A stretch of 38,270 nt of DNA, from sequence record OM735461.1; one strand, given 5' to 3'. The notes under the pieces are model-generated. The model was not told where the DNA came from. It saw only the letters and a program-made list of their open reading frames with translations, and did no database searches. This document shows, one piece after another, positions 1 through 38,258 of this stretch. The stretch's first letter is position 1, and the number at the start of each line of letters is the position of its first letter. Both the position numbers and the translations under genes were made by a program. The stretch comes from Escherichia phage BUCT618.

Positions 1-19
1 CCATTCCGGGCCTTTTCTT

Positions 20-2389
20 TTACCATGCTGAAAGGTTGTAGCCGGTGACCAGGTTGTCAGAGATGGCGTCTAGCGTAGGGTCAACCTGGTCGTCGTGCTT
101 TCCGTTAGGGAATACGGAGAATTCACCGATGTAGGCAGGCATCCACGGAGCATCCTTCGGCAGGTGAACAAGGCCCGCCTCAATCTGCGGCAGAACATCC
201 AGGGCGCGGGTGAATTTATCCACCGAGCGCTGAATCGGGATTACCGGCACACCCTCCATTTTCAGCGTCTGAATCAGGCCGGTTCCGCTGGCCTTATCCT
301 CAATCTTCATTCCGCGAACAACGCCACGGTTAATGGGTGATTTGTGCAAATCCCAGAATGCGCGAGCCTGTTTTATGAGGTCCGGCGCCTCCCATTTACC
401 ACGAATCTGGTCGAGCAGATAGGCGTGGCCGTTTTTGAATCCCCAGCACTGGAATACAGACCAGTCGTTGTGCTCTTTTGTTTTGAGAGCGGTATCTGCG
501 TATATAACGCGATAATCCCACTCCGGGTGCACAAAGCTGTTGTCGTACCACTGCCACCAGCTGTCTTTGAAAAGGCCGCCGCCTTTCGGTGCAGGGCGCT
601 GCATGTACTGACCAGCGAATACGTAAGGGTTACTGGCCTCCATCTCTGCCAGCTTCTCACGTGAGTGCTTAAAGGGCCACAAGGCGGTGTCATCTGGGTT
701 TACGGCAGGGATACTAAGTACATGCCACTGCTCGCCATTTCCGCCAGCCTGTAGCCATCCTGCAAGGTCTTCCTCGTGGAGTCTCTGCATGATAACGATA
801 ATTGGCGTATCAGGGCTGTTCAGGCGTGATTCCATCGTGGTCTGGAACCAGTCAATGACATTCTGCCGCATGGTGTCAGAATTGGCCTCGCTTGCCTTAT
901 GCGGGTCATCAATTATGATACAGTTAGATACAACGGCACCTGTTTGTGATAATATGAAGTTGTTGTTATCTTCAACCCCTAAACAATAGGTTTCATCAAC
1001 ATGACCGATATACTCAACGAAACATGGCTGACCATCCCCAACACCAATGGGCTTTACGAGGTTTCCGATGCTGGAAATGTCAGAAGGACACGTCCCATCC
1101 GAGCGCTTAAGCCTTCTGTTGACTCCAAAGGATACTTGAGAGTCAACCTTTCCGTTGGCGGTAAGGTCACCTGCAAATACATCGCTCACCTTGTCGCTGA
1201 GAATTTTATAGGCGAAAGGCCCCATAAGAATGAGGTTAGGCACCTGGACGGGAACCCCATGAATAACACCCTTAGCAATCTCGCGTATGGCACTAAGTCC
1301 GACAACATGCAGGACGCTTTGCGGCATGGAACATTCCCCGTGCTCGAAAGAAGACCAGGAGCAGTCCTCGACAGAGTAAAGGTTGTTGAAATATTCCAGA
1401 GCGCCGATGATGCTAAAACTCTCGCTGCCAGGTACGGAGTTAGCGTCGGGGTTATCAGGCAGATCAAACTCAGACAGACATGGCGTAGCGTCACGAATGG
1501 ATTGCCTGATGCTCGGTGGAATGCAAAGCCAAAGCACTCGAAGGAAGTGATAAAAATCGCCATCGACCGGCGCTACAGCAGGGAAGAGGCTTGCAGACTC
1601 ACCGGACTTTCTTTGCACCAGATTAAGAGGCTTCGCAAGATGAATGGCGGAGACCCATCCGGCATCGGTTAATATTTCATGATCAGGAGTGCACTCAAAT
1701 GAAGACCCATCATCAAAGTGCACTCTTATAATGTCATTGCCAGGGTTTACCCACTTGTGAGTGATCCGCTTAACTTCAGCAACCTGATTATTCTCATTGA
1801 ATGAGTTTACCTCCATGACACCGCTGTGGATTATGTCATAGATGGATAGCTCTCCGTCAGGAGTGGAAATAATCTGGCTAGCTGGGAAGCAACCGCCGAA
1901 GCCTTCACGCAGTTTACCTGCGCCATACCCTGTGATAGTCCCGTCCGAACCGGTGGCATAGACGCAGCCGCCGGTTTTGGTGCGCCACTCGTCTTTAGCC
2001 TTAGCGTCCGGCATCATGCCGATGTCGCCGAATACGGCACGGTACTCTTCAGACATGGCAATGGCGCGGGCCTGGTAGGTGTTATTTGCTGCAAGGCGCT
2101 TGGAGTAGCTGGCGTGGATAAATTCGCAGTCAGGATAGTTCCCGATAGCCCAGGCCATGAAGTTGACCACAGCAAGCTCGGTCTTTGAGTAGCGAGGGGG
2201 GATATTGATAATCAGGCGTTTGTACTGTCCGATAAAGCACCGCTCGAGCGCCTCGCAGATTTTCGCATGATGCCAGTTCTCCACAAAGTCAAAGCCCTTG
2301 CGGGCCTTGAACATGTATTTGGAAAACTCAAGCAGGTCACATCGCAGGGTAGCGATGTCGTCGGCGGAAAGTTTAATCTCTTGAGCCAT
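20..2389 (-). CDS. terL: Terminase large subunit, interrupted in frame by an intein (extein about 466 aa)
   Basis: 789-aa ORF. N-extein has Walker A-like IPPRYSKT and ends GAGKLREGFGG; C-extein starts CIIIDDPHKA (Walker B-like) and carries QYMQRP and acidic nuclease-type residues. Lies immediately downstream of terS with a 17-nt overlap. Confidence 0.85.
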   Translation of the reverse strand: MAQEIKLSADDIATLRCDLLEFSKYMFKARKGFDFVENWHHAKICEALERCFIGQYKRLIINIPPRYSKTELAVVNFMAWAIGNYPDCEFIHASYSKRLAANNTYQARAIAMSEEYRAVFGDIGMMPDAKAKDEWRTKTGGCVYATGSDGTITGYGAGKLREGFGGCFPASQIISTPDGELSIYDIIHSGVMEVNSFNENNQVAEVKRITHKWVNPGNDIIRVHFDDGSSFECTPDHEILTDAGWVSAIHLAKPLNLVQRKSGESASLFPAVAPVDGDFYHFLRVLWLCIPPSIRQSIRDATPCLSEFDLPDNPDANSVPGSESFSIIGALEYFNNLYSVEDCSWSSFEHGECSMPQSVLHVVGLSAIREIAKGVIHGVPVQVPNLILMGPFAYKILSDKVSDVFAGDLTANGKVDSQVSFGVNRRLKRSDGTCPSDISSIGNLVKPIGVGDGQPCFVEYIGHVDETYCLGVEDNNNFILSQTGAVVSNCIIIDDPHKASEANSDTMRQNVIDWFQTTMESRLNSPDTPIIVIMQRLHEEDLAGWLQAGGNGEQWHVLSIPAVNPDDTALWPFKHSREKLAEMEASNPYVFAGQYMQRPAPKGGGLFKDSWWQWYDNSFVHPEWDYRVIYADTALKTKEHNDWSVFQCWGFKNGHAYLLDQIRGKWEAPDLIKQARAFWDLHKSPINRGVVRGMKIEDKASGTGLIQTLKMEGVPVIPIQRSVDKFTRALDVLPQIEAGLVHLPKDAPWMPAYIGEFSVFPNGKHDDQVDPTLDAISDNLVTGYNLSAW
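923..1891 (-). mobile_element. Intein within terL (residues C167 to N489, 323 aa)
   Basis: N-terminal Hint blocks CFPASQIISTPDGELSIYDI and ECTPDHEILTDAGW (TxxH); C-terminal blocks ETYCLGVEDNNNFILSQTGAVVSN followed by +1 Cys. The central ~210 residues are low complexity with no endonuclease motif in this frame. Confidence 0.7.
1001..1672 (+). CDS. HNH homing endonuclease (NUMOD4-like N-terminus, HNH_3-like core, C-terminal helix-turn-helix repeats), encoded antisense inside the terL intein
   Basis: 223-aa ORF with ETWLTIPNTNGLYEVSDAGNVRR, KGYLRVNLSVGGK, HLVAENFIGERPHKNEVRHLDGNPMNNTLSNLAYGTKSDN, then two HTH-like segments. No strong Shine-Dalgarno upstream. Confidence 0.8.
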   Translation: MTDILNETWLTIPNTNGLYEVSDAGNVRRTRPIRALKPSVDSKGYLRVNLSVGGKVTCKYIAHLVAENFIGERPHKNEVRHLDGNPMNNTLSNLAYGTKSDNMQDALRHGTFPVLERRPGAVLDRVKVVEIFQSADDAKTLAARYGVSVGVIRQIKLRQTWRSVTNGLPDARWNAKPKHSKEVIKIAIDRRYSREEACRLTGLSLHQIKRLRKMNGGDPSGIG

Positions 2390-2999
2390 ACTTCCTTCTG
2401 AGCGCCTCAGTTACATCTGAGCCTTGTGGTGACATTGAACCGTCGCTTGAGATGTGGTTGACGGTTTCTTTGTATCCGCCAAGCATCTTGATGAGCATAT
2501 CCTGCGCCTTCTGCTGGTCTGCCATCTCGAACTTCGGACCCATCTTCGTGAAGGTGATGCCTTTGATGAGTCCGCGAATCTCTTCGGGTACTTCATCAGA
2601 TGACATCTTCACGACCGGCACAGCCATCTCACCAATCACCTCGCCGTCCTCGTTCACCATTGGGCGTTTCTCCCATCCGATGAACTGAGTCACGTCGGCA
2701 AACGCCTGAGCCTGGATGCGTGATGCAATTTCGTCAAGGCTCATGAGTTTTGACTTGGCAATAAGCCTGCGAGCCTCGCGGATGTATGGGCCGACTTTTG
2801 GATGGGTCAGCAATTTGCATCCAGCGACTACGGCAGACTTATATGCTACATCTTCGCCATAAGCATGGAGATACGCTCTCGTTGCGTTACCATTAGCAAT
2901 ATAATGATTAGCAAATGTTAAATGGTCTTTACTCAGTTGAGCCGCCATTTCCTCAAGCTCAGGCGTGAAGAAAGGCAGCTTATCGTCTGCCTCTGCCAT
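2373..2999 (-). CDS. terS: Terminase small subunit (Terminase_2 / P27-like)
   Basis: 208 aa with FANHYIANGNATRAYLHAYGEDVAYKSAVVAGCKLLTHPKV signature; strong RBS (GAAGGAGG); directly upstream of and overlapping terL. Confidence 0.8.
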   Translation of the reverse strand: MAEADDKLPFFTPELEEMAAQLSKDHLTFANHYIANGNATRAYLHAYGEDVAYKSAVVAGCKLLTHPKVGPYIREARRLIAKSKLMSLDEIASRIQAQAFADVTQFIGWEKRPMVNEDGEVIGEMAVPVVKMSSDEVPEEIRGLIKGITFTKMGPKFEMADQQKAQDMLIKMLGGYKETVNHISSDGSMSPQGSDVTEALRRKYGSRD

Positions 3000-3000
3000 G

Positions 3001-3201
3001 TCAATCCTCCTTCACCAGCACCAGTTTAAACCGTGAACGAGCGACTTTCTCGCCATAGTTATGGATGGCGCGCGGGTTTGGTGTATTAAAACTTTTACTG
3101 CGGCCCGGAGTAATGAATACATCCTCGCCATTAGCCGCAGCATCCATTGCTTCCTTCATGCCGTTACGGATAAAGTCACGCGGGGTAAATTGTTTCATCA
3201 T
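3001..3201 (-). CDS. Hypothetical small protein (66 aa)
   Basis: ORF ending 1 nt before the terS start; no recognisable motif. Confidence 0.4.
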   Translation of the reverse strand: MMKQFTPRDFIRNGMKEAMDAAANGEDVFITPGRSKSFNTPNPRAIHNYGEKVARSRFKLVLVKED

Positions 3202-3249
3202 TAATCCTTTCCGTTGTTTCCCCTATTATCGCCCCGCAATGAAACAGTG

Positions 3250-3750
3250 TCAACCTCGGTATGATTTGATTTCACTGCGCACCCAGTTGCGGGGGATGGA
3301 GAATGTACCCATCTTCTTGCCTGATTCGGATGCCTCTTTGCACTCCAGTCTTCCATCCTCTTCTCGATACCTTGCATTGTTTACCACCTCTTTCAGCCAG
3401 AAGTCGCCATTGACTTTATGGGTGAAGGTTCGCAGTCCATCTTCGGTTGTGACATCTACGGCCATTTCTACATTGCGCAGGATGTTCACGACAGTTCTCC
3501 AGTCACGGAAGCCGTACTTCTTAACCAGGTCTATAGCGGGGATCAGGTCCGGGTCGATTTTGGTGGCTGCTTCTATGAAAGCCTGCTTATCAACCTCGGC
3601 TGACTCCTTGCGTCCTTTAACTTCACTCCGAAGTGTCCGTACTTCTGACTTAACGGATTTAAGTTCAGTGGTGAGTGATTTTACCTGCTCAATCAGCTTT
3701 TCAACATGAAGGGCCAGGTTTGCGTAGTGCGGGGTTGGTTTGCGTTTCAT
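3250..3750 (-). CDS. Hypothetical protein with N-terminal coiled coil
   Basis: ORF track starts at 3774, but the ATG at 3750 is preceded by AAGGAG at the right spacing, so the start is placed there. No confident domain call. Confidence 0.5.
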   Translation of the reverse strand: MKRKPTPHYANLALHVEKLIEQVKSLTTELKSVKSEVRTLRSEVKGRKESAEVDKQAFIEAATKIDPDLIPAIDLVKKYGFRDWRTVVNILRNVEMAVDVTTEDGLRTFTHKVNGDFWLKEVVNNARYREEDGRLECKEASESGKKMGTFSIPRNWVRSEIKSYRG

Positions 3751-3780
3751 GGTTATCTCCTTAGTGTCATGCATGAGGAG

Positions 3781-3809
3781 AATTTAATATGTAGAAAGGA
3801 AGGTGTCAA
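3781..3809 (-). promoter_or_regulatory. Candidate sigma70-type promoter for the minus-strand operon leading to terS/terL
   Basis: TTGACA (reverse complement of 3804-3809), 17-bp spacer, TAAATT; about 25 nt upstream of the RBS. Confidence 0.4.
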
Positions 3810-3971
3810 CATTATATTGATGATTCTCAATCACTGCTCTGCGTGGGGGTGTGGGTGAGAGTCATCGAGGCCTCGCCTCCACCCTGTCCCGTAAAGCAGG
3901 GTTTGAGGTTATCATATTTTTTTTATAAAGTCAATAGATGAGAGGCAAAAAACAAAGTATAAAATTAGTGT

Positions 3972-4000
3972 TTGACATAATCACACCAGGCGGGTAGATT
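3972..4000 (+). promoter_or_regulatory. Candidate early promoter
   Basis: TTGACA, 17-bp spacer, TAGATT; the first ORF starts at 4026 with AGGAG RBS. Shares the 15-mer TAGTGTTTGACATAA with the promoter at 32286. Confidence 0.5.
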
Positions 4001-4025
4001 TACTGAAAACAACAGGAGAAACGAA

Positions 4026-4265
4026 ATGACCAACGAATCAATGAAAGAGTACGAAGAAATCCAGCAGCGCCTTATGGATGAGTTCATTAACAACATCTCA
4101 CCGTGGATTGACTGGGTTGGCATGTCTGGTTTTGAAGAAACAATGGCCCGCTCTGCAGTTCGCAGCCTTATCAGCCTTTCTTATTATGAAGGCACGATGA
4201 ATGGCATTCGTGTCATGCAGCAGAATATGAAGGAGTTCCATGATGATGCAATGCGTGACCGTTGA
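4026..4265 (+). CDS. Hypothetical protein (79 aa)
   Basis: First ORF after the promoter, with RBS. Confidence 0.5.
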   Translation: MTNESMKEYEEIQQRLMDEFINNISPWIDWVGMSGFEETMARSAVRSLISLSYYEGTMNGIRVMQQNMKEFHDDAMRDR

Positions 4266-25350: not shown

Positions 25351-26379
25351 TTAAATCCCGTTAGTTACAGTAACAGACAGCGGGAAGTATACCACAACGC
25401 CAGCGGTTGCCAGGTAGCCATCCACCACAGTTGCCAGGTTGCGAGCTTCTGGCGGCATCATGGTAAACGGTTTTGGAACCTCAACGCCGAGCTTCTCGGA
25501 ATCGTTGCGATAGTGAATCATAGCGCTGTTGGTCTGACCGGTTCCCTGCGGACCCAGCCATTCCACGGTTTCAACCGTGATTTCCGGGTAGGATTTCTTG
25601 AAGCGCTCCATCGCATTCTCGCCGGTGTTATCGGTGAAGAATGTGGTGCGGGCACGCTCATAGCTCGCAGATGTCATGACGACGGTATCAGGACGCTCAG
25701 CGCCGATGGTGTCTGTCGCCTGCTGGGTAATTGGGTAAACCAGGTCAGCATAGATTTCTTCTGCTGTTTTAGTTGCCCAGGTCGATGTACCCTTCGCGCC
25801 GTTTGTTGCGGTGCGAGTGGTAACGTTCGGCGCGTTATACAGACCGGTAAGACCAGTTTCAGCATCGCCAACCCAGATGATCTGGTCCAGCTTCTGCTCT
25901 GCTGCATTTCGGATCGCCATACCCTTACGGTCAACGATATTCATGCCAGCAACGGTTGCTTTGGCGATTTCGAATACGCTGTAAATAATCGAGCCACCGA
26001 ATGCACGGATGTTTACAACCTTCTTCTCGCCAGTGACCTCGATGTTTGGCAGGTCGTCGGCGTAGTTGGTGATGTGCTCCAGCATACCAACGCGGTCAGC
26101 GACAGTGTAGGCAAACTCTTCAGCACCGAATGGCGCTTCGTTCTGCATAGGCAGCAGGTTTTTACCCTTGAATTGCGGGTATGCCTTCTCCCGGATGCGG
26201 TTAGACATCGCCTGCAACTGCTGCGCAAAGATAACACCGGTTGCGGCATCAGCACGGAAGCCAAGCTGTTGCACATCCAGCGCTTTAGATACCAGGCTCG
26301 CCAGCATGGTAGGAGTGGTTTCCCAGCCCGCATCCAGCTTCACGCCCTTAAGATGATCCAGTCGTAAATTGATATTCAT
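25351..26379 (-). CDS. Major capsid protein
   Basis: 342 aa, between the scaffold-like and head completion genes, with a terminator downstream. Confidence 0.7.
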   Translation of the reverse strand: MNINLRLDHLKGVKLDAGWETTPTMLASLVSKALDVQQLGFRADAATGVIFAQQLQAMSNRIREKAYPQFKGKNLLPMQNEAPFGAEEFAYTVADRVGMLEHITNYADDLPNIEVTGEKKVVNIRAFGGSIIYSVFEIAKATVAGMNIVDRKGMAIRNAAEQKLDQIIWVGDAETGLTGLYNAPNVTTRTATNGAKGTSTWATKTAEEIYADLVYPITQQATDTIGAERPDTVVMTSASYERARTTFFTDNTGENAMERFKKSYPEITVETVEWLGPQGTGQTNSAMIHYRNDSEKLGVEVPKPFTMMPPEARNLATVVDGYLATAGVVVYFPLSVTVTNGI

Positions 26380-30386: not shown

Positions 30387-30463
30387 TGGCGCACACGGAC
30401 GGATTTGAACCTTCAATCAGCCGATTATAAGTCGGTTGCTTTAACCAATTAAGCTACGCATGC
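30387..30463 (-). tRNA. tRNA, 77 nt, anticodon UAU (would read AUA, Ile)
   Basis: Hand-folded cloverleaf: 7-bp acceptor stem with two G-U pairs, D loop AATTGGTTA, anticodon loop CUUAUAA, T loop TTCAAAT, discriminator G, encoded CCA. One mismatch each in the anticodon and T stems. Confidence 0.65.
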
Positions 30464-36356: not shown

Positions 36357-36395
36357 TTGGTTAAGCGAGGTTATGACGATTATGGAGAAGTTTCG

Positions 36396-38258
36396 ATGAT
36401 TACAAATGATGGTGTTAAGTTAATTCATGGTGATTGCCTGGAGGTGCTGAAGGGAATGCCAGACAATTCCGTGGATAGCATAGTCACAGACCCGCCTTAT
36501 GGACTTTCATTCATGGGGAAGAAATGGGACTACGAAGTTCCTGACCAGGCTATCTGGGAGGAATGCCTACGCGTCCTTAAGCCTGGTGGTCATCTGCTGG
36601 CCTTTGCTGGTACACGAACGCAGCACCGCATGGCTGTTCGCATTGAGGACGCTGGGTTCGAGATACGGGACATGATTGCATGGGTATATGGCAGCGGGTT
36701 TCCTAAAAGTGCGAACGTTTCAAAGCAGATAGACCAGCAAGAAAGAAACAGATGGGTTAAAATCATCAAGGCGATTGATAAAACAAACCTTTCTGAAATG
36801 GCTGAACTATGGATAAACTCAAGAAATGCGAATGCTGCGGGGCTTTCATTCCAAAGGAATCAAACCGAAGCTGGGCTCAATACGCAAAAAAACGGTTTTG
36901 CTCACGGAAGTGTTCTGCTTCAAGTCAGTCACAAAAACTGCGATGCGCTTGCAGTCATTGCGGAACTAAATTCGACCGAAGCCCATCCCACAAGCGAGGG
37001 GAATTGCAGTTCTGCACAATCGAATGCCGAAAGCACTATCACGGCATCGAAAAGCCATGCGACCACTGCGGAAAAATCACCAGAAAACCGCGAAGCAACG
37101 CTGTGCATGGTGGATTTTTCTGCTCTACACAGTGCATGGGGCTGGCAAGGCGAAAGCAGGGCGGACAAACTCAAGGCCGTCGAAGCCCTGAAGATTTGGC
37201 TTGGAAGAAAGCCATCCTCAAGGCGGGAGGCTACAAGTGCGCTATGTGCGGCACTGACAGACGACTTGAAGCGCATCACGTTAAGCCAATCAAAGACTTT
37301 CCTGAGCTACGACACGACACGTCAAATGGCTTGTGCGTCTGCCATCAGTGCCACTATTACGGAATCCACGGCGGCAAGCCTAATTTCATTCACGGCAGGT
37401 ACTCTAAAAAGTAAGGCCATCGACAAGGCGGCTGGTGCGGAGCGCGAGGTGGTCGGCAGCTACGAGGTGACTCGCGACATGTCTGGCGGATCATGGGCGG
37501 AACTTCACGGAAAACCGAACAGCGCCAAGATGCACAACATAACCGCACCAGCCACCGACGCCGCAAAACAGTGGCAAGGCTGGGGTACAGCCCTAAAGCC
37601 AGCACTTGAACCAATCACCGTAGCACGCAAGCCGTTCAAAGGCACTGTGGCGGCTAACGTGATGGAGTGGGGAACGGGGGCGCTGAATATTGATGGGTGC
37701 AGGGTGGTGGGGGATGTTTGGACTAGAAGAACACCTTATAAAGACAACATCAAAGGCGGACAGCTTCACGCCGCAAAAAGTGAATCAACCTACGCATGCG
37801 GCCCTCAATCTTGCAATGAATTGGGGCGCTGGCCCGCGAACCTGATTCACGACGGAAGCCATGAGGTGATGTCGGAGTTTCCTGCAAATGTTGTCGCGAA
37901 CGGAGGTAGCGGCGTATTTAACCAGCACGCATGGATGCGCTACGAGACGCCGCAGAACATCAATCGCAGCAAAGGCAGCGCAGCTCGCTTCTTCTACTGC
38001 GCTAAGGCCAGCAAGAAAGACCGAGGCGAAGGTAATAACCACCCTACCGTCAAGCCAACCGACCTCATGGCGTACCTTTGCCGCCTTGTAACGCCTCCTG
38101 GTGGCGTGGTTCTCGACCCGTTCATGGGCAGCGGTAGCACCGGCAAGGCAGCCGTGCGCGAAGGCTTCCGCTTCATCGGCATTGAAATGGACGCGGAGTA
38201 CCTTGCAATCGCTGAGGCGAGAATTGCGCATGATGCAGGGAAGCAGACTGAGAAATAA
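36396..38258 (+). CDS. DNA N6-adenine / N4-cytosine methyltransferase (beta class) carrying a 630-nt in-frame insertion
   Basis: DPPY motif (SIVTDPPYG) near the N-terminus and FxGxG motif (DPFMGSGSTG) near the C-terminus. Start placed at ATG 36396 after GGAG (ORF track begins at TTG 36357). Residues about 140-350 are Ser/Thr/Ala-rich low complexity. Confidence 0.75.
   Translation: MITNDGVKLIHGDCLEVLKGMPDNSVDSIVTDPPYGLSFMGKKWDYEVPDQAIWEECLRVLKPGGHLLAFAGTRTQHRMAVRIEDAGFEIRDMIAWVYGSGFPKSANVSKQIDQQERNRWVKIIKAIDKTNLSEMAELWINSRNANAAGLSFQRNQTEAGLNTQKNGFAHGSVLLQVSHKNCDALAVIAELNSTEAHPTSEGNCSSAQSNAESTITASKSHATTAEKSPENREATLCMVDFSALHSAWGWQGESRADKLKAVEALKIWLGRKPSSRREATSALCAALTDDLKRITLSQSKTFLSYDTTRQMACASAISATITESTAASLISFTAGTLKSKAIDKAAGAEREVVGSYEVTRDMSGGSWAELHGKPNSAKMHNITAPATDAAKQWQGWGTALKPALEPITVARKPFKGTVAANVMEWGTGALNIDGCRVVGDVWTRRTPYKDNIKGGQLHAAKSESTYACGPQSCNELGRWPANLIHDGSHEVMSEFPANVVANGGSGVFNQHAWMRYETPQNINRSKGSAARFFYCAKASKKDRGEGNNHPTVKPTDLMAYLCRLVTPPGGVVLDPFMGSGSTGKAAVREGFRFIGIEMDAEYLAIAEARIAHDAGKQTEK
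36783..37412 (+). mobile_element. Putative in-frame insertion carrying the HNH gene, bounded by duplicated KAIDK codons
   Basis: AAGGCGATTGATAAA at 36768-36782 and AAGGCCATCGACAAG at 37413-37427 both encode K-A-I-D-K; the 630 nt between them is a multiple of three. Confidence 0.45.
36809..37414 (+). CDS. HNH endonuclease with three N-terminal zinc-ribbon repeats, nested in the +2 frame of the methyltransferase gene
   Basis: Three C-x2-C ... FC-x3-C repeats, then CAMCGTDRRLEAHHVKPIKDFPELRHDTSNGLCVCHQCH. Confidence 0.75.
   Translation: MDKLKKCECCGAFIPKESNRSWAQYAKKRFCSRKCSASSQSQKLRCACSHCGTKFDRSPSHKRGELQFCTIECRKHYHGIEKPCDHCGKITRKPRSNAVHGGFFCSTQCMGLARRKQGGQTQGRRSPEDLAWKKAILKAGGYKCAMCGTDRRLEAHHVKPIKDFPELRHDTSNGLCVCHQCHYYGIHGGKPNFIHGRYSKK

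Follow-up and report, generated by a model that had tools for sequence, protein, structure and literature searches.

Introduction

The homing endonuclease of an intein is usually a domain in frame with the splicing domain, and the way in which the two become partners is debated. The existence of long antisense overlapping genes in prokaryotes and phages is likewise contested. An endonuclease open reading frame (ORF) on the strand opposite to the intein frame was described for the Synechocystis DnaX intein (Gorbalenya, 1998, Nucleic Acids Res 26:1741, as summarized by Gosselin et al.), and antisense endonucleases of the LAGLIDADG or VSR-like (EDxHD) type occur in actinophage inteins including those of the terminase (Gosselin, Arsenault & Gogarten, bioRxiv 10.1101/2025.01.02.630785). 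The same authors proposed that a free-standing endonuclease gene invaded the intein, in their case for these other nuclease types, and found HNH endonucleases only in frame (Gosselin et al., 10.1101/2025.01.02.630785). A literature search for antisense HNH endonucleases in inteins returned only that preprint, where HNH is in frame. Here, an intein in the large terminase subunit gene (terL) of Escherichia phage BUCT618 is described that carries an HNH endonuclease gene on its opposite strand; the window analyzed is the whole phage genome (OM735461.1; 38,270 nt, i.e., ~38 kb).

The locus is best interpreted, with a probability of about 0.8, as a composite mobile element at the Walker B motif of TerL, in which a cis-splicing class 1 intein carries an antisense HNH gene of the free-standing type.

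An HNH Gene Antisense to the terL Intein

The terL precursor ORF (20..2389, minus strand; 789 codons plus stop) was open through the intein and matched Pfam Terminase_6C (4.1e-12), in agreement with the original prediction of a continuous 789-codon terL with an insertion carrying intein blocks. Phage large terminases aligned to it by tblastn as two pieces, one on each side of the insertion, which spans terL codons 167-489 (323 codons, 969 nt; 923..1891, minus), begins with CFPASQ, includes TPDHEIL as block B, and ends with VVSN followed by Cys. The N-extein (TerL residues 1-166; 1892..2389, minus) contains the Walker A-like PPRYSKTE motif and ends with GKLREGFGG, and the C-extein (20..922, minus) comprises the +1 Cys (TGT, 920-922), the Walker B motif IIIDDPHK, the nuclease domain, and the stop codon. 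Within the insertion, all on the minus strand, an N-terminal splicing region (intein residues 1-86; 1634..1891) with Cys1 of block A at 1889-1891 and T68-x-x-H71 of block B at 1679-1690 is joined by a linker (residues 87-285; 1037..1633) to a C-terminal splicing region (residues 286-323; 923..1036) that holds blocks F and G and ends with ...GHVDETYCLGVEDNNNFILSQTGAVVSN, its terminal Asn323 lying at 923-925. The linker is the terL-frame read-through of the antisense HNH gene.

The HNH homing endonuclease gene (1001..1672, plus strand; 223 residues plus TAA) is nested within terL. Over its span, the codon-aligned antisense frame contained no stop compared with 18 and 4 in the other two frames, which bears out the exact antisense codon register claimed for the two ORFs. 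The HNH stop codon (TAA, 1670-1672) is antisense to Leu74 in block B and the ATG (1001-1003) to His297, six codons before the block F Cys, so that the gene exactly fills the gap between blocks B and F. This gap is the usual place of the in-frame endonuclease domain in inteins. The terL-frame linker itself gave no Pfam match, and in that frame the only Pfam match of the insertion was to the N-terminal part of Intein_splicing; the claim that the insertion has no endonuclease motif in the terL frame therefore stands.

The HNH Endonuclease Product and Its Putative Expression Signals

The plus-strand ORF had been called an HNH endonuclease from its letters, and profile matches together with a predicted I-HmuI-like fold support this identity. 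Pfam matches were obtained to NUMOD4 (4.3e-10; 40.1 bits vs. a cut-off of 23.4) at HNH residues 7-51 (1019..1153, plus) and to HNH_3 (1.7e-9; 37.6 bits vs. a cut-off of 24.8) at residues 63-104 (1187..1312, plus), with further weak matches to helix-turn-helix families that place a putative C-terminal helix-turn-helix at about residues 185-217 (1553..1651, plus). The catalytic residues H81, N89, N93, and N102 were invariant among 18 HNH homologues. An AlphaFold model of the product had a mean predicted local distance difference test score (pLDDT) of 83.4, and its top and sole strong match in the PDB was I-HmuI (1u3e; E 1.2e-8, 26% identity over 160 aligned columns). The HNH and intein models were built from the same nucleotides and from equally deep alignments of 18 sequences.

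Signals that may drive expression of the gene from its own strand were also identified. A Shine-Dalgarno-like TAGG (987..990, plus), antisense to the block F codons T-Y, lies 10 nt upstream of the ATG and is a putative ribosome-binding site; in 18 of 23 loci, a motif containing AGG preceded the HNH ATG by 6-16 nt, and this motif was GGAGG in L003, L020, and L042. A consensus scan further revealed a putative promoter, TAGATA-17 nt-GATAAT with an upstream TG (extended -10), at 925..953 (plus), antisense to NFILSQ...VSN|C and kept in close relatives.

Stop Avoidance and Selection on Both Strands

As the original prediction had stated, the HNH ORF of the window is free of TTA, CTA, and TCA codons, compared with about 6.7-7.3 expected (P ~2e-4 to 1e-3 at this single locus). 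A codon-aligned antisense ORF of 284 residues without a Pfam match (25513..26367, plus) is also present inside the major head gene of this genome (25351..26379, minus), where codon bias is strong and the frame is probably open by chance, and an antisense frame of this kind without homology makes one open antisense frame by itself weak evidence. The single-locus evidence is thus moderate and the comparative evidence decisive.

Relatives were gathered with the HNH protein and an HNH alignment from contigs in IMG/VR, ENA, JGI, and Logan. At 24 distinct loci, the HNH gene was nested, on the opposite strand and in codon register, within a terL frame that was open for 750-1145 residues or up to the contig end, with HNH identities to the window of 30-97% and guanine + cytosine (GC) fractions of 0.31-0.63. 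The open frame in these relatives was terL, with the same intein inserted where it is in the window (...G|C[FL]P... ...[SH]N|C..DDP). None of the 744 HNH Leu/Ser codons in the 24 embedded loci was TTA, CTA, or TCA, compared with 333/1387 (24%) in 52 free-standing homologues recovered by the same search; in the low-GC group, TTA and CTA accounted for 0/130 Leu codons in embedded vs. 103/187 in free-standing genes. Eight embedded loci with GC <0.40 contained no such codon against about 8-17 expected per locus, and the per-locus probability of this absence drops to 1e-10 or 1e-11 in AT-rich loci. Homologues therefore keep both the plus-strand and the terL frame open, with no antisense stop in any of the 24 loci, and the points that had been named beforehand as refuting the overlap were all checked without any of them doing so. 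The L003/L004 pair was considered as a source of a control and rejected, as L003 is another member of the family; the 52 free-standing homologues serve as controls instead.

These counts bear on the view that a permissive codon-aligned antisense frame was left open by one real gene and that only one strand is read. Such frames do occur, as in the 284-residue ORF of the major head gene and in the high-GC free-standing loci L035, L049, L080, and L088, where the open antisense frames encode Arg/Gly/Pro-rich junk that is not terL. Coincidence is nevertheless extremely improbable, given that the three codons are missing from all 24 embedded loci and make up 24% of Leu/Ser codons in free-standing genes, that the open frame runs on both sides into conserved intein blocks and terL exteins, and that the HNH frame matches HNH profiles and is predicted to fold like I-HmuI.

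The codon positions show which frame is selected for its amino acids. Among 36 close pairs, divergence in the HNH frame at positions 1/2/3 was 0.33/0.22/0.58, a normal coding pattern. In the terL frame, third positions were the most variable (0.50-0.67) in the N-extein, both Hint ends, and the C-extein, and the linker gave 0.60/0.24/0.36, the mirror of its flanking segments. This flip within the overlap indicates amino-acid selection on the HNH strand, with the terL-frame linker apparently constrained only to remain stop-free.

Searches for the same arrangement in deposited sequences varied in their reach. A megablast search with positions 1..2400 against GenBank phages and Escherichia coli genomes found no near-identical DNA, and tblastn with the intein and the HNH protein found no phage genome with the same arrangement in the collection of deposited genomes searched. 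A word-indexed protein search with the terL-frame intein gave no match, likely due to limited sensitivity and to read-through ORFs being dropped by gene callers; an exhaustive HMMER profile search, by contrast, recovered many read-through terL-intein proteins. Three annotated candidates were rejected. In Pseudomonas phage MR14 and Proteus phage ZX7, the "endonuclease" beside terL is an ordinary free-standing gene on the same strand, and in phage Aurca01 the "RecB" feature that covers an HNH match is a free-standing HNH gene under a wrong name.

Individual loci of the family displayed further features. The public gene calls of L005 (2684..3520) and L006 (2121..2990) cut terL to its C-terminal 278-289 residues with an HNH gene called on the opposite strand, and the read-through terL precursor is absent from both annotations. 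The terL frame of L043 (1680..5114, minus; 1145 residues) contains, besides the intein with the antisense HNH gene, a second and shorter intein-like insert downstream in the nuclease domain (HDD|SCFVAG...ILVSN|CD). The antisense frame of the 960-nt contig L007 is open over the HNH gene, and the flank past the 3' end of this gene (806..960), where block B is expected, has a stop and no TxxH; L007 may have degenerated or may be an assembly chimera.

The Splicing Domain and Its Insertion Site

The intein displayed the features of class 1 inteins, with Cys1 as nucleophile, the TxxH of block B, and a C-terminal Asn followed by a +1 Cys. In an alignment of 18 inteins, C1, G13, T68, H71, C303, and N323 were invariant, and the +1 residue was Cys in every intein-bearing locus. 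The penultimate residue is Ser322 (926..928) in the window and Ser in most members, with the penultimate His found in L003, L012, L018, and L033, and block F position 4 is occupied by the invariant Cys303 (983..985) in place of the usual Asp. Both positions vary among active inteins, so that Ser322 and Cys303 do not exclude splicing. The class 3 motif of Tori et al. (2010) reportedly consists of Trp at B:12, Cys at F:4, and Thr at G:5 in inteins without an N-terminal nucleophile. Assignment to class 3 was rejected, since the F:4 Cys is the only one of these residues present, with Ile73 at B:12, Val at G:5, and Cys1 in place.

The AlphaFold model of the intein had pLDDT values of 83-94 for residues 1-86 and 86-91 for residues 290-323 compared with ~25 for residues 87-285. 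Foldseek matched it to the Mtu RecA intein (E 5e-6), to the Ssp DnaB intein, and to the Npu DnaE intein, which spans both ends with a target-normalised template modeling (TM) score of 0.79-0.80. A profile of the joined intein ends matched PDB inteins at 9e-15 to 2.5e-14, and Pfam Intein_splicing was matched in 17/17 family members (best E 6.4e-13). From these models, the intein ends (~86 + 38 residues) are confidently predicted to form a Hint fold around an unstructured linker of ~200 residues. The insertion is modeled as a Hint fold, and terL is open in all 24 loci. A group I or group II intron was rejected, as an Rfam scan of 700..2100 gave no intron RNA match at E<=1 and the host frame is open and carries intein motifs.

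The extein junction that had been proposed, GFGG / CIIIDDPH, was confirmed by intein-less terL alleles, which place it at GFGG|AIIIDDPH with Ala replaced by Cys where the intein is present. The intein-less site reads CGTGAAGGCTTCGGCGGC|GCAATCATAATTGATGATCC, and in L094 ...CGTGAAGGCTTCGGCGGC|GCAATCATAATTGATGATCCGC... At the DNA level, the junction is GGC|GCA ATC ATA (G|AIII) in the intein-less allele compared with GGT|intein|TGT ATC ATA in the window, and the +1 codon of intein-less alleles is GCA or GCC (Ala). The replacement of this Ala codon by TGT in the window indicates that the +1 Cys codon travels with the intein. A stretch of the C-extein directly beside the intein (~710..922; TerL residues 490-560) displayed 76% identity among intein-bearing terL genes compared with 43% in the rest of the C-extein and 54% in the N-extein; the conservation of these 70 residues could be due to the Walker B core, to their co-conversion along with the intein, or to constraint on the region upstream of the HNH gene.

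The continuity of the frame also bears on whether terL is read through at all. Phage genes, terminase included, are known in which split inteins surround a free-standing endonuclease gene (Dassa et al., 2009, PMC2677866), and a fractured terL of this kind would yield intein halves that are made separately and trans-splice; the division of terL by gene callers in L005 and L006 would fit it. Those splits are an artefact of gene callers that bar nested antisense genes, and the three genes of the published fractured loci share one strand, with a stop followed by a restart (PMC2677866). No stop separated the intein halves in 24/24 loci, and the strongly selected avoidance of stops would be pointless for a split intein. 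Trans-splicing is thus very improbable, and a contiguous intein excised in cis remains the preferred interpretation.

Mobility, Decay, and Origin of the Element

Near-identical terL alleles differ in the presence of the intein. In the viral contigs L093 and L094, TerL was 98-99% identical in amino acids to the spliced TerL of the window (93.5% in nucleotides) and lacked exactly 969 nt, and the same 969 nt were missing from L095 and L099, where TerL was 95-96% identical to the spliced protein. No co-conversion tract was found beside the insertion site beyond positions -1 to +3.

Products of decay were identified as well. The HNH gene of L021 (3501..4214) differed from that of the near-identical L018 by nine substitutions, eight of them non-synonymous and including K87* (AAA to TAA), and the terL frame of L021 remained open despite this pseudogene; the 3' part of its terL is unlike that of L018, which suggests recombination. 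An exhaustive profile search for mini-inteins yielded 21,674 Hint matches. Among the best 150 cluster representatives (50% identity), 84 carried the "shadow" linker, recognised by a hidden Markov model (HMM) of the terL-frame sequence opposite the HNH gene, and all 84 were terL-like (84/84). In addition, terL mini-inteins of 123-154 residues and intermediate inserts of 175-245 residues were found at the same position, a series that is the expectation from loss of the endonuclease gene.

This decay raises the question of whether the HNH ORF of the window is itself a dead relic, in which case the locus would be an immobile mini-intein with a long junk linker and an unexpressed plus-strand frame. 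The pseudogene of L021, the mini-inteins and partly deleted linkers at the same site, and the argument that antisense ORFs are unprotected by selection on the host gene (Gosselin et al., 10.1101/2025.01.02.630785) would fit this possibility. It is unlikely in view of the full length of the window gene with all catalytic residues in place, the excess of variation at third over second positions of the HNH frame (0.58 vs. 0.22 in the 36 close pairs), the conserved ATG and Shine-Dalgarno-like motif, and the presence or absence of the intein among near-identical terL alleles. An active composite element is therefore preferred over a relic.

If so, the terL mRNA would be translated through the linker and protein splicing would remove the 323-residue insert, leaving a TerL of 466 residues with the junction GFGG-CIIIDDPH (junction peptide ...EGFGGCIIIDDPHK). 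A transcript of the opposite strand, with a ribosome-binding site of its own, would yield the HNH protein, which would nick or cut intein-less terL alleles of co-infecting phages; recombinational repair of these alleles would then insert the intein along with the HNH gene and the +1 Cys codon. TTA, CTA, and TCA are the sole codons that put a stop into terL, and their complete absence from the HNH gene is what maintains the overlap. A more extended interpretation, which we hold to be slightly better than even, is that both strands are translated, which would place this among the largest and best-supported nested codon-aligned antisense pairs (~220 codons), that the locus captures the fusion, into one mobile unit, of a free-standing antisense HNH gene adjacent to terL and a mini-intein at the target site of the former, and that the antisense transcript perhaps modulates terL.

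Besides the antisense frame in the major head gene, several observations weigh against a mobile, cis-splicing element. The analysis shows the architecture, the Hint and HNH folds, dual-frame selection, the presence/absence polymorphism, and the decay products; splicing, antisense expression, and cleavage specificity are steps that we infer. With a penultimate Ser and a Cys at F:4, the putative splicing competence is deduced from conservation in place of a canonical set of motifs, and the Intein_splicing score of the window's own intein (25.8-33.5 bits) lies under the gathering score of 35.8. Conservation of the promoter-like and Shine-Dalgarno-like motifs is confounded, since both overlap conserved intein blocks (F and G in the case of the promoter). 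The identities of exteins and inteins were roughly similar between distant intein-bearing loci, so that support for horizontal transfer is confined to the presence or absence of the intein among near-identical terL alleles, and precise loss by recombination could also yield this polymorphism.

The relationships of the HNH genes inform the origin of the element. In a neighbour-joining tree, the intein-embedded HNH genes formed essentially one clade. Nested within it were three free-standing genes, all antisense and directly upstream of an intein-less terL: L022 (HNH 2405..2986), L023 (HNH 3504..4106; terL 1906..3444, minus), and L071 (HNH 3441..4211, between terS and terL; terL 1924..3474, minus). 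These are possible precursors or escapees of the embedded form. A terL gene was nearby in only 4/63 free-standing HNH loci. The endonuclease frame was also compared across related inteins, as had been suggested, and an in-frame match to the HNH profile was found in just 1/150, which was weak and came from a protein other than terL; none of the best 150 intein clusters had a homologous HNH domain in frame at the terL site.

The original prediction was that the nuclease appears to have been transferred to the opposite strand of the intein that it belongs to. Under such an inversion, an ancestral in-frame HNH domain would have been flipped in place and the host frame later cleared of stops. In-frame HNH inteins do exist in phages according to the account in Gosselin et al. 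(10.1101/2025.01.02.630785), and the place taken by the HNH gene, from block B to block F, is precisely where endonucleases are canonically inserted. This inversion is not favoured and is quite unlikely, because the gene is built like a free-standing one, with an ATG, a Shine-Dalgarno motif, and a stop codon of its own and a helix-turn-helix at the C-terminus of its product, its free-standing clade-mates lie antisense beside intein-less terL genes, several terL mini-inteins occupy the same site, and among the 150 closest inteins the single in-frame match was weak and outside terL. Capture by a mini-intein of a terL-adjacent antisense free-standing HNH gene is more likely, given the gene's own start, Shine-Dalgarno, and stop signals, its terL-adjacent free-standing kin, and the lack of any homologous in-frame HNH intein at the site among the best 150 clusters.

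A Methylase Insertion and Other Genome Features

Besides both terminase subunits (small and large), the BUCT618 genome encodes helicases, RecT, baseplate, tape measure, tail sheath, major head protein, protease, and portal, and a tRNA-Ile with the anticodon TAT, which reads ATA (30387..30463, minus). A DNA methylase (36357..38258, plus; 633 residues) matched Pfam N6_N4_Mtase (3.3e-33) in two separated stretches around an insertion of ~250-290 residues, the in-frame translation of which is Ser/Thr/Ala-rich junk. A nested ORF (36809..37414, plus, frame +2; 201 residues) has at least six CxxC pairs and matched HNH_2 and HNH above the gathering scores, making it the second alternative-frame endonuclease gene in the same phage. 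Homologues of the methylase were identified in phages Taj, Wee, and Spoonbill, and a 345-residue cyanophage methylase is without the insertion. The insertion looks like the ShiLan type of hidden out-of-frame HNH in mycobacteriophage methylases (Arsenault, Gosselin & Gogarten, 2025, PMC11855218).

Significance of the terL Family

The terL family adds HNH as a third nuclease class to the few known antisense cases and is abundant in metagenomes. It links three states, in which the HNH gene is free-standing and adjacent to terL, is embedded antisense in the intein, or is missing from a mini-intein at the site in question, and this supports the model of splicing domain first and endonuclease captured later. 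It also provides a statistically strong natural case of two antisense coding frames under simultaneous selection; if both strands are indeed translated, consistent avoidance of three codons has kept the antisense pair together in lineages of 31% to 63% GC. In these loci, terL is divided and the intein concealed by gene callers, highlighting that automated annotation can mislabel or truncate an essential gene. The apparent tolerance of the modeled Hint domain for an arbitrary unstructured linker of ~200 residues may be of use to protein engineering.

Comparison With Described Systems

The terL element shares with the ShiLan methylase insertions a host ORF that is read through an insertion encoding an HNH endonuclease in another frame; those insertions are on the same strand and without a splicing domain, whereas the terL gene is antisense and associated with a Hint domain (PMC11855218). 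As in the fractured genes of Dassa et al., which are likewise phage and metagenomic, an endonuclease gene of the free-standing type lies between intein halves (PMC2677866), and both systems exemplify ways in which inteins acquire such genes. The fractured genes are arranged on the same strand with a stop and restart, trans-splice, and encode GIY-YIG or Vsr-like endonucleases (PMC2677866), in contrast to the terL intein that is contiguous in all loci with its HNH gene antisense.

The product resembles I-HmuI (1u3e) in its HNH_3 catalytic motif and in the modular and extended DNA-binding architecture predicted by the model, and differs from it by having NUMOD4 as well and a helix-turn-helix that is longer at the C-terminus. 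The gene for I-HmuI resides in a group I intron, whereas the terL HNH gene is inside an intein and on the opposite strand. In collaborative homing, reportedly described by Bonocora & Shub (2009) and Zeng et al. (2009), a free-standing endonuclease gene beside a conserved gene targets the latter at the position where a nearby group I intron, itself without an endonuclease, is inserted. The adjacency of the free-standing L022, L023, and L071 HNH genes to terL is similar to that arrangement; the partner of the terL gene is an intein instead of a group I intron and the two elements are physically nested.

The closest likeness is with the inteins of Gorbalenya (1998) and Gosselin et al. (10.1101/2025.01.02.630785), with which the terL element has in common the opposite-strand endonuclease between the splicing blocks, the open intein frame, and a read-through without recognisable structure. 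The terminase large subunit is among the hosts of the Gosselin inteins as well, and invasion by a free-standing gene is the origin proposed for both. In contrast to their LAGLIDADG or VSR-like enzymes, the nuclease of the terL element is an I-HmuI-like HNH endonuclease with NUMOD4 and helix-turn-helix, and the terL relatives of the window phage infect Gammaproteobacteria while the published cases are actinophages. Beyond that study, the present analysis adds a large family, stop avoidance at the codon level, and free-standing relatives adjacent to terL. The arrangement is thus not unprecedented; it is a rare published architecture, here with a nuclease class and host phages that are new to it and with a family of large size, and it differs from the published antisense inteins in the type of nuclease, not in architecture.

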